From assembly GCA_002499085.1 (NCBI GenBank), contig DAKD01000032.1, forward strand, positions 1,315-65,314: 64,000 nucleotides of DNA, in the 5' to 3' direction. Below the pieces are notes generated by a model, which saw nothing but the letters and a program-made list of their open reading frames with translations, was not told the DNA's origin and did not search any database. This DNA comes from Methanomassiliicoccales archaeon UBA280. GTDB lineage: Archaea; Thermoplasmatota; Thermoplasmata; SG8-5. Position 1 is the first letter of the stretch. Every line of letters begins with the position of its first letter. Positions 30,685-34,333 of this stretch are shown in pieces. The translations under genes were made by a program, and so were the position numbers.

Positions 30685-32753
<2,069 letters not shown>

Positions 32754-32832
32754 CCCGATATTTTTAAATATGCTGTTACTTATACATCATAGGTACATCA
32801 AAAGTACGTTTAAACGGATTAAAGGTGGAACT

Positions 32833-33561
32833 ATGGCGGAAGTCAGAGTGATAATCCCGGACGAGGTGGACAGGTACCTGGACAGCGTCATCAAGTCCGG
32901 AATGTTCGGAAACAAGGCCGAGCTGGCCAGGGCCGCGATAGTGCATTTTCTCAACACATTGGGGCCGGTATCGAAGGGCTATGACACAGAGACATCGTTC
33001 TCCCCGGACGGCAGGATCTTCCAGCTGGAGTATGCGAGGGAATCCGTGCAGAGGGGCAGGCCGGTCGTCGGGATCGTGTGCTCGGACGGCGCCGTGCTGG
33101 CAACCGAGAACCTGTCTAAGGGCCCAGACTCGCTGCTGGTCTCCAACCCGGGCATCAGGAGGATATCCGAGAACATAGCCATCGGATACTCGGGCCTGGC
33201 AGTGGACGCGATGATGGTGATGGACCACCTCAAGCCCCTGGACCTCAAGACTGAAGAGAAGGTCTTGACCGCCATAAGGGAGATGTACTGGAACCAGACC
33301 CTGAAAAGGGACACGAGGCCGCTCGGGGCGAGCCTGCTTGTGGCGACTTGCTTCTCGAGGCCGCGGCTGTTCGAGGTCGAGCCGGGCGGGATGATAAACG
33401 AGTGCTTGGCCGGGATAATAGGGGCCGGGAGCGAAGCCTCGAGGGCTTCCCTGGCTGCGGAATACAGGAAGACAGCGATAAAGAACACGGGAAAGCTCAT
33501 CGCCTCGATGCTGGGCGAGGGCAGGGAATACACGGTCGAGACATTGCTGGCAGGAGCGTGA
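32833..33561 (+). CDS. Proteasome alpha-type subunit with N-terminal ribbon-helix-helix (CopG-like) extension
   Basis: Residues 1-45 (MAEVRVIIPDEVDRYLDSVIKSGMFGNKAELARAAIVHFLNTL) fit a beta-alpha-alpha RHH pattern. YDTETSFSPDGRIFQLEYARESVQRG and a short, divergent alpha-type core follow. Start at the Met at 32833, after AAAGGTGG. Confidence 0.75.
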   Translation: MAEVRVIIPDEVDRYLDSVIKSGMFGNKAELARAAIVHFLNTLGPVSKGYDTETSFSPDGRIFQLEYARESVQRGRPVVGIVCSDGAVLATENLSKGPDSLLVSNPGIRRISENIAIGYSGLAVDAMMVMDHLKPLDLKTEEKVLTAIREMYWNQTLKRDTRPLGASLLVATCFSRPRLFEVEPGGMINECLAGIIGAGSEASRASLAAEYRKTAIKNTGKLIASMLGEGREYTVETLLAGA

Positions 33562-33565
33562 TTGC

Positions 33566-34333
33566 ATGGAGGACGACATCAGGATAACGGACAGGAAGGA
33601 CGTGAGCGTGAAAGGCGCGGTGCTGATCGAGGGATTTCCCAGCATCGGAATGGTGAGCTCGATTGTGGCCAATTACCTGATAAAGACACTCAACATGGAG
33701 TATATAGGCTCTGTCAGGTCCAAGAACTTCCAGCCTCTCTCCGTCATCTCCGGGGGCGTGCCGATGCCGCCTGTGAGAATATACGCGGGCCAGCCAGTCG
33801 AGAAGAAGGACTGCATATGCGAAAGATTGGTCGTGGTCACCTCCGAGTTCGCGCCACCGGCCGAGCTGATGCAGCCGCTTGCAGAGAGATTGCTGGAATG
33901 GTCCAAGGACAAGGGCATCAAGACCATCATTTCGATAGAAGGCATAATCAGCGAGAGCAAGGAACATGAGCAGCACAGCACCTATGCCATTGCCAGCTCG
34001 CCTGCGGCCAGGAAGCTCCTTGAGAACAGGAACATCAAGCCGATGCAGAACGGCATAATCACCGGAATTTCCGGAGTGCTGCTCCACGAGGCCGAAGCCA
34101 AGGGCCAGGATGTCATATGCCTGCTCTCGGACGCGAATCCCCAGATACCGGACGCGCGTGCGGCCGCAAGGCTCATCGAGCTTCTGGACGGATTCCTGCC
34201 CAAGATAAAGCTTGACCCGCAGCCCCTCATCAAGGAGGCGGAGAGATTGGAAGGATTGCTGAAGCAGTCCCTGGCCCATGCAGGCGCGATGAACGTTCCC
34301 GTGGGCAAGGAACAGCAGGTCATGTACGGCTGA
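33566..34333 (+). CDS. PAC2-family proteasome assembly chaperone-like protein
   Basis: N-terminal GFPSIGMVSSIVANYLI and overall PAC2 (PbaA/PbaB-like) pattern. Lies 4 nt after the alpha-type gene. Confidence 0.75.
   Translation: MEDDIRITDRKDVSVKGAVLIEGFPSIGMVSSIVANYLIKTLNMEYIGSVRSKNFQPLSVISGGVPMPPVRIYAGQPVEKKDCICERLVVVTSEFAPPAELMQPLAERLLEWSKDKGIKTIISIEGIISESKEHEQHSTYAIASSPAARKLLENRNIKPMQNGIITGISGVLLHEAEAKGQDVICLLSDANPQIPDARAAARLIELLDGFLPKIKLDPQPLIKEAERLEGLLKQSLAHAGAMNVPVGKEQQVMYG

Follow-up and report, generated by a model that had tools for sequence, protein, structure and literature searches.

A predicted ribbon-helix-helix domain at the gate end of a divergent archaeal proteasome alpha-type paralog, and an operator-like repeat array in the promoters of its family

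Why should a protein with the core of a proteasome alpha subunit carry, in front of that core, a stretch that resembles a DNA-binding domain? Few structural proteins of archaea and eukaryotes are as conserved as proteasome alpha subunits, whose N-terminus is the gate of the particle. The question is raised by a gene at positions 32833-33561 (+ strand) of a 64,000-nucleotide stretch of contig DAKD01000032.1 from Methanomassiliicoccales archaeon UBA280 (assembly GCA_002499085.1), referred to as the window. Its 242-residue product (ATG at 32833, TGA at 33559-33561), here called RHH-alpha for ribbon-helix-helix (RHH), is composed of a 48-residue N-terminal domain, a short linker and a divergent proteasome alpha-type core. 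A first, sequence-only reading had described the gene as such a fusion, paired with a PAC2 chaperone gene, and had left its role between a non-proteasomal paralog, a regulator that binds DNA and a gated variant of the 20S particle; its description of the locus was correct at all points that could be checked, and of its three options we lean towards the regulator.

The N-terminal domain (residues 1-48, 32833-32976, + strand) was examined by database searches, structure prediction and profile comparison. A database search with the RHH-alpha protein returned 430 homologs. Two alignments, of 24 and of 118 of these, show the strongest conservation of the family in the N-terminal 48 residues, where the mean column identity over three phyla is 66%. 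Invariant or nearly so are M1, E3, R5, P9, D13, L16, G23, N27, K28, A29, E30 and R33, among which E3 and R5 in the strand and N27, K28 and R33 at the start of helix B occupy what we take, from Arc, MetJ and CopG, to be the base and phosphate contact positions of RHH proteins. The expected elements follow in order, namely a strand at about residues 3-8 (EVRVII), helix A at 10-21, a turn at G26-N27-K28 and helix B at 28-43. AlphaFold2 (AF2) models built from the full alignment (predicted local distance difference test, pLDDT, 86.6) and from the domain alone (pLDDT 83) agree in placing an extended segment at residues 1-9 and helices at 10-21 and 28-43, and residues 44-52 form a low-confidence linker after helix B. 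When the domain model was compared with the PDB by Foldseek, all 42 of the 42 matches were RHH proteins (NikR, ParD, Arc, CopG, the RHH domain of PutA, omega and MazE6 among them) at template-modelling (TM) scores of 0.5-0.75, every E-value lying above 0.5 because the domain is very short.

These observations were further supported by sequence profiles. Pfam RHH_1 is matched by 5 of 20 family N-termini (best E 4e-4), and others match ParD, VapB or RHH_8; the window protein's own 48 residues matched nothing in Pfam, and NCBIfam gave a weak ParD match at residues 6-36 (E 0.012). A profile of the domain (49 columns) searched against 1.84 billion representative proteins yielded 96 matches, with the fusion family ranked first and small stand-alone proteins next, of which P0151 (a tandem RHH protein, 46.7 bits), P0190 and P0124 pass the RHH_1 cut-off, while a sequence search of the PDB with the same profile returned noise only. 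On the predicted fold and these profiles, the N-terminal 48 residues are an RHH domain, so that the fusion proposed by the sequence-only reading, and the strand-helix-helix pattern on which it was based, were both confirmed by the profile searches, the AF2 model and its RHH-only Foldseek matches.

The domain is part of the protein and not an artefact of the chosen start codon. Residues 1-48 precede G49-Y50-D51...FSPDGRIFQLEYA, in agreement with the roughly 48 extra residues first noticed, and codons 1-48 differ from those of 11 relatives by 13-26 synonymous and 5-9 non-synonymous changes; the conservation of the N-terminus together with this synonymous excess indicates that these residues are translated and that translation does not begin further in. 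Between codons 25 and 127 the gene has neither ATG nor GTG. A Shine-Dalgarno-like GGTGGA lies at 32824-32829 (+ strand, read from the sequence), with GGTGGA or GGAGG at an equal distance from the start codon in relatives, and a TATA-box-like TTTAAATA at 32763-32770 (+ strand), 63-70 nt 5' of the ATG, marks the putative promoter of the RHH-alpha/PAC2 operon, with A/T-rich boxes similarly placed in relatives, 5' of the repeat arrays considered below. An in-frame ATG at 32770 falls within the TATA box, and extension from it would add residues present in no homolog. An internal start or an untranslated leader, named at the outset as what could undo the fusion, is ruled out by the conservation, the codon changes and the placement of the Shine-Dalgarno and TATA elements.

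The remainder of the protein (32977-33561, + strand; residues 49-242 and stop) is a proteasome alpha-type domain by Pfam, with Proteasome PF00227 at 68.9 bits over residues 72-215 and Proteasome_A_N PF10584 at 31.3 bits (cut-off 27.7) over residues 54-70. It is a divergent one, as the NCBIfam equivalog model for archaeal alpha subunits, TIGR03633, scores 87 bits against a cut-off of 287.35 (NF003075: 97 against 219), so that the protein falls short of equivalog-level orthology with functional archaeal PsmA. The fold is nonetheless that of an alpha subunit: the family profile matches archaeal alpha subunits in the PDB at 1e-48 to 1e-53 from profile position 48 on, the AF2 core has pLDDT above 90, and the top Foldseek matches of the model are alpha subunits (28-30% identity, E 1e-17). 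The YD motif (Y50, D51) and the H0 helix signature FSPDGRIFQLEYA are present, and the conserved alpha-specific positions comprise Y50, D51, P58, G60, R61, Q64, E66, Y67 and A68, with no catalytic Thr1. Y50, D51, P58, Y67 and the entire H0 helix are retained across the family, the four residues corresponding to Y8, D9, P17 and Y26, which stabilise the open gate of 20S particles. R10 is not retained, and the YGGVRPFG loop is replaced by (K/R)(K/R)DxRPLG. In the column of the HbYX-pocket Lys66 (Thermoplasma acidophilum numbering), where the alignment is uncertain, the window protein has Gly, Lys is found in 17 of 27 Thermoplasmata members, and the Bathyarchaeia and Asgard proteins carry Gln or Glu; Arg is common two positions further on, with the same uncertainty. 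The shortened core with a compressed middle that had been noticed from the sequence is real but belongs to the Thermoplasmata subfamily only, which relative to canonical alpha has a deletion of about 9 residues between H1 and H2 and is missing about 25-30 C-terminal residues, whereas the core is full length in Bathyarchaeia and Asgard members.

Is RHH-alpha then the proteasome alpha subunit of its cell? The genome assembly, which is 77% complete, holds two further Proteasome-family genes, a canonical PsmA (236 aa) and PsmB, and RHH-alpha is therefore an extra paralog and not the PsmA of the cell. The same arrangement was found in eight other carrier genomes (two Bathyarchaeia, three Asgard and three Thermoplasmata), all with canonical alpha and beta genes; since these are kept in nine of nine carriers, RHH-alpha is not needed as a structural alpha subunit. 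In a maximum-likelihood tree of alpha domains from which the RHH part had been removed (34 fusions, 10 canonical alphas of the same genomes and a beta outgroup), the fusion proteins form one clade (97/83) that is sister to canonical alpha (98/98), with Thermoplasmata standing apart from Bathyarchaeia and Asgard. The single clade points to one old fusion event maintained by selection. Fusion length follows the same division, at about 240 aa in Thermoplasmata and about 278-287 aa in Bathyarchaeia and Asgard.

A scan with one genome per species gave 36 full matches, distributed over Thermoplasmata, Bathyarchaeia, Hodarchaeota and Promethearchaeota. In the order of the window the N-terminal domain is present in 18 of 22 species genomes, always in single copy, and outside it the prevalence of the fusion is about 2%: an even sample of the window's phylum gave 7 matches in 401, one of them an 88-aa stand-alone RHH-type frame and six of them full-length fusions (five besides the window's own genome), and an even sample of the class to which a Bathyarchaeia carrier belongs gave 4 in 201, one of them a 52-aa fragment. 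The family is old and under selection, yet patchy. In one Thermoplasmata metagenome-assembled genome (G008, C2:213094-213553; L035 6001-6459, L072, L078) the gene is broken into a 152-aa frame and Proteasome-domain fragments, apparently as a pseudogene or through an assembly or frameshift error. A contig labelled 'Nitrospirae bacterium' (L030, VBOD01000062.1) carries an RHH-alpha near-identical to that of an archaeal assembly from the same study (L029, VBLR01000107.1) and is most likely mis-binned. One Promethearchaeota genome (L074, G003 C19:57277-57786) has a second, long-branched canonical-type alpha paralog without RHH domain, and one Thermoplasmata genome (L064, G008 C5:73236-73745) has a very long-branched alpha gene in a 340-aa open frame.

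If the domain binds DNA, a candidate site stands in the promoter of its own gene. An operator-like array at 32783-32818 (+ strand) carries TACAT at 32783-87, TACAT at 32794-98 and TACGT at 32805-09 with 11-bp spacing, and the last unit forms part of an imperfect palindrome, TACGT-TTAA-ACGGA (32805-32818). The array is placed downstream of the TATA box and ahead of the start codon, where transcription is expected to begin, and it is here that archaeal repressors which prevent the recruitment of polymerase bind. Inspection of the 130 nt 5' of the start codon across the family loci revealed related elements elsewhere, with five units at one locus, L016 (TACGTCAAACA TACGTGATTAA TACGTTAAACA TACGTTAAAAA TACGT...), and with TCCAT-N4-ATGGA at exactly -24 in Bathyarchaeia and Asgard loci. 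Arrays of at least three TAC[AG] units at 10-12 bp spacing stand 5' of the ortholog at 12 of 36 loci, with none on either strand of the remaining 706 kb of these loci, and the palindrome T[AC]C[AG]T-N4-A[CT]G[GT]A occurs within 90 nt 5' of the start at 18 of 36 loci and five times in the other 355 kb, an enrichment that is optimistic, given that the motif was defined after viewing the same loci and that these are related by descent. Even so, loci of at least six deep clades from three phyla carry the element, in intergenic DNA that is otherwise unalignable, and Thermoplasmata, Bathyarchaeia and Asgard loci alike have it between TATA box and ATG.

Within its own 1.75-Mb genome assembly, the window array is the sole array of at least three units. 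A wider regulon was looked for by the same array scan, which gave solely the RHH-alpha promoter, and the regions 5' of psmA, of psmB and of this genome's second PAC2 gene contain no such array. The palindrome alone is unspecific there, with 30 matches against about 18 expected, mostly intragenic. On contig C13 (31689-31718), between two minus-strand open reading frames (ORFs), there is an intergenic nested palindrome, CTCCATgaaaaaTACGTTTTAATGGAG, that resembles the operator half-sites; this look-alike (C13:31703) is far from a start codon and has no promoter position. The conserved array in the family's own promoters, as read from sequence, lends support to the option of a regulator that binds DNA.

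Taken together, these observations suggest, with a confidence only somewhat better than even, that RHH-alpha is an autorepressing DNA-binding alpha paralog of NikR-like build, in which the alpha domain acts as an oligomerisation or sensing module. We infer the binding of the repeats, the repression that binding would bring and any link with the 20S particle, and the fold of the binding domain is itself a prediction. The RHH domains of two subunits would pair, and the pair would bind the TACAT/TACGT repeats, which share one face of the DNA in the promoter of its own gene, downstream of the TATA box and ahead of the ATG. Each dimer would use E3 and R5, both invariant in the strand, to read the TNCRT units. 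Binding would repress the operon, which in this order would include a PbaA-like, HbYX-bearing assembly factor, and the alpha domain would hold several RHH dimers together and thereby allow cooperative occupancy of the in-phase repeats, as the C-terminal domain does in NikR and PutA; it may also report the assembly state of the proteasome or of the alpha ring. Several points weigh against autorepression, in addition to the optimistic enrichment. A different factor could bind the repeats. In Bathyarchaeia and Asgard loci the palindrome and the Shine-Dalgarno sequence (ATGGAGG) overlap, so that it might instead form a hairpin in the mRNA that acts on translation. RHH proteins are obligate dimers and alpha rings are heptamers, and this stoichiometry poses a problem. 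Finally, a pure oligomerisation module has no obvious need of the gate residues and the H0 helix, whose retention argues for some continued life inside alpha rings.

A PAC2-family gene (33566-34333, + strand; 255 aa, PF09754 at 149.5 bits against a cut-off of 25.8) begins 4 nt past the RHH-alpha stop (TGA at 33559-33561, ttgc, ATG), confirming the neighbour first described. It is probably co-transcribed, and a GGAG lies 10 nt 5' of its ATG, within the end of the RHH-alpha gene. Its closest solved structure is PbaA 3wz2 (1e-28, compared with 2e-13 for Ta1441 and 6e-07 for PbaB 3vr0), and it ends in VMYG, an HbYX-type tail of which MYG is kept in 8 of 8 orthologs (V/A/S-M-Y-G). Adjacency of the two genes, as traced with phmmer and jackhmmer, is limited to 9 of 36 loci, all of them close relatives and often with a 4-nt overlap; PAC2 is absent downstream at the 27 other loci, among them a sister family within this order and every Bathyarchaeia and Asgard member, and the downstream genes there are unrelated (MFS transporters, SNO amidotransferase, Mut7-C RNase, a giant cadherin-like protein). 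The pairing therefore did not hold up as a family-wide trait: the operon is real in the window but is a lineage-specific addition. A second PbaA-like paralog lies on another contig of this genome (C4:42107-42769; L080 1438-2223, - strand; 261 aa, 42% identical, tail SMYG), and the eight other carrier genomes have 3-4 PAC2-family genes each, all away from RHH-alpha, a number above the PbaA/PbaB pair that is usually discussed.

Directly upstream, at 32040-32753 (+ strand), is a PrsW-family intramembrane metalloprotease (PF13367, 109.9 bits), so that the PrsW protease, RHH-alpha and the PbaA-like factor place three proteolysis-related genes in succession. Several close relatives have, at the corresponding upstream position, an ORF of 165-242 aa on the + strand. 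The adenylosuccinate synthetase gene, taken as its longest ORF (30685-32130, - strand), shares about 90 nt with the start of PrsW; its Pfam match starts at residue 57, and the real purA start is thus probably an internal Met.

Could RHH-alpha instead be an alternative alpha subunit, building 20S rings alone or mixed with PsmA, in which RHH pairs over the pore, instead of binding DNA, serve as plug, gate regulator or docking platform and the PbaA-like factor acts as chaperone through its HbYX tail? The core does have the fold of an alpha subunit, it keeps the gate cluster Y/D/P/Y and the H0 helix as functional alphas do, the RHH domain lies about 6 residues from the YD gate motif, and in this clade the HbYX-bearing gene is translationally coupled. 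This would, however, leave the conserved in-phase promoter repeats and the invariant E3 and R5 unexplained; the HbYX-pocket Lys is, in an uncertain stretch of the alignment, replaced by Gly in the window protein and by Gln or Glu in Bathyarchaeia and Asgard, the Thermoplasmata subfamily has lost part of the H1-H2 loop and of the C-terminal helix region, and most of the family has no PAC2 linkage. We regard such a ring subunit as unlikely.

A protein with both roles would combine the two readings. Here the free protein would repress its operon, and ring entry or capture by the PbaA-like factor would remove it from the DNA, so that expression would track the demand for ring assembly, an arrangement that may be likened to PutA and, in function, to the feedback loop of yeast Rpn4. 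It would explain the operator, the kept ring and gate residues and the shared operon with an assembly factor. It is entirely inferential, however; as psmA, psmB and the second PAC2 gene have no array 5' of them, the regulon seems not to extend beyond its own gene, the PAC2 linkage is clade-specific, and we consider this feedback sensor likewise unlikely. A similarly low probability is assigned to the further proposal that RHH-alpha is at once an alpha paralog and a transcription factor, which when free would occupy the repeats of its own promoter as RHH dimers, and would leave the DNA, or enter rings and cap the pore, during ring building or on capture by the PbaA-like factor. The weakest explanation, an annotation artefact in which either translation starts internally and the RHH-like residues are untranslated leader, or the likeness to RHH is due to chance, can draw on the lack of a Pfam match for the window's own 48 residues but is highly improbable against an N-terminus best conserved in more than 100 homologs of three phyla with mostly synonymous changes in its codons, upstream elements that fit the 32833 start, no alternative start in codons 25-127, and structure prediction and profile searches that agree on RHH. 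Autorepression remains the reading that we prefer.

A folded DNA-binding domain placed exactly at the gate position, and long kept in Thermoplasmata, Bathyarchaeia and Asgard beside a normal alpha subunit, is unexpected. If RHH-alpha binds its own promoter, it would be, to our knowledge, the first subunit of proteasome core-particle type to have become a transcription-factor module, and if it also enters rings, it would offer a simple archaeal model of feedback between proteasome assembly and expression. We know of such feedback in eukaryotes only via dedicated factors, for example Rpn4 and Nrf1; should the dual role prove true, 20S assembly and gene expression would be coupled by a direct physical feedback in archaea, Asgard lineages included. 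Source databases name the homologs '20S proteasome alpha/beta subunit', 'peptidase' or 'hypothetical'. No description of the fusion was found in the limited collection of literature searched, nor was it mentioned in the parts consulted of a catalogue of proteasome homologs (PMC8665760) and of a survey of archaeal fusions (PMC11237513). RHH regulators and alpha paralogs are known kinds of protein, their combination was not found described in that literature, and the conserved operator-like element in the family promoters is new in this analysis. With a predicted operator, a small protein and candidate partners (PsmA, PsmB and the PbaA-like factor), the question is directly testable in vitro.

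With archaeal PsmA (T. acidophilum 1PMA, Archaeoglobus 1J2P, Methanocaldococcus 3H4P) RHH-alpha shares the fold, the YD motif, the FSPDGR reverse turn, the H0 helix QxEYA and the absence of Thr1; it differs in forming a separate sister clade that coexists with canonical PsmA, and in carrying a folded RHH domain where PsmA has a free gate tail. The neighbouring PAC2 protein is of PbaA type with an HbYX-type C-terminus, comparable to PbaA and PbaB (P. furiosus 3WZ2, 3VR0) and to T. acidophilum Ta1441 (3GAA), of which PbaB is a proteasome activator; we know of no published PbaA partner that is alpha-type. The known partner of PbaA, PF0014, is smaller and is described, in the portion consulted of the report on it, as without similarity to proteasome subunits (PMC6992696), and identity of RHH-alpha with it is ruled out. 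Anbu, BPH, connectase and the 22 families catalogued by Fuchs, Alva and Lupas (2021, PMC8665760) are likewise divergent prokaryotic relatives of the 20S core; as far as the consulted part of that catalogue describes them, they were identified by conservation of active-site residues, whereas RHH-alpha is alpha-type, non-catalytic and fused to a predicted DNA-binding domain.

On the side of DNA binding, the CopG/Arc/MetJ/omega/ParD repressors (PF01402, PF03693) share with RHH-alpha the strand-helix-helix order and the G-x-N/S/T turn before helix B, and its predicted operator, like those of CopG, MetJ and omega, is built from short units in phase with the helix. These repressors are small stand-alone proteins or antitoxins, whereas RHH-alpha carries a 195-residue proteasome-type domain. 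A role as type II antitoxin (ParD/CopG-type) was rejected, as no toxin family was found adjacent among the downstream neighbours at ten loci, the neighbours in the window being PrsW and PAC2. In build RHH-alpha resembles NikR (E. coli 2HZA, 3OD2) and PutA, which likewise join an N-terminal RHH domain to a larger C-terminal domain, and NikR chains take Foldseek ranks 1, 3, 5, 6 and 7 for the RHH domain, with ParD2 at rank 2. In NikR and PutA the C-terminal domain multimerises and can sense a signal, and regulation proceeds through operators near the promoter. The C-terminal domains themselves differ, being an alpha-type domain of N-terminal nucleophile (Ntn)-hydrolase fold in RHH-alpha, an ACT-like nickel-binding domain in NikR and a proline dehydrogenase in PutA, and by this resemblance RHH-alpha may share the working principle of NikR and PutA with a proteasome-type domain in the place of theirs.

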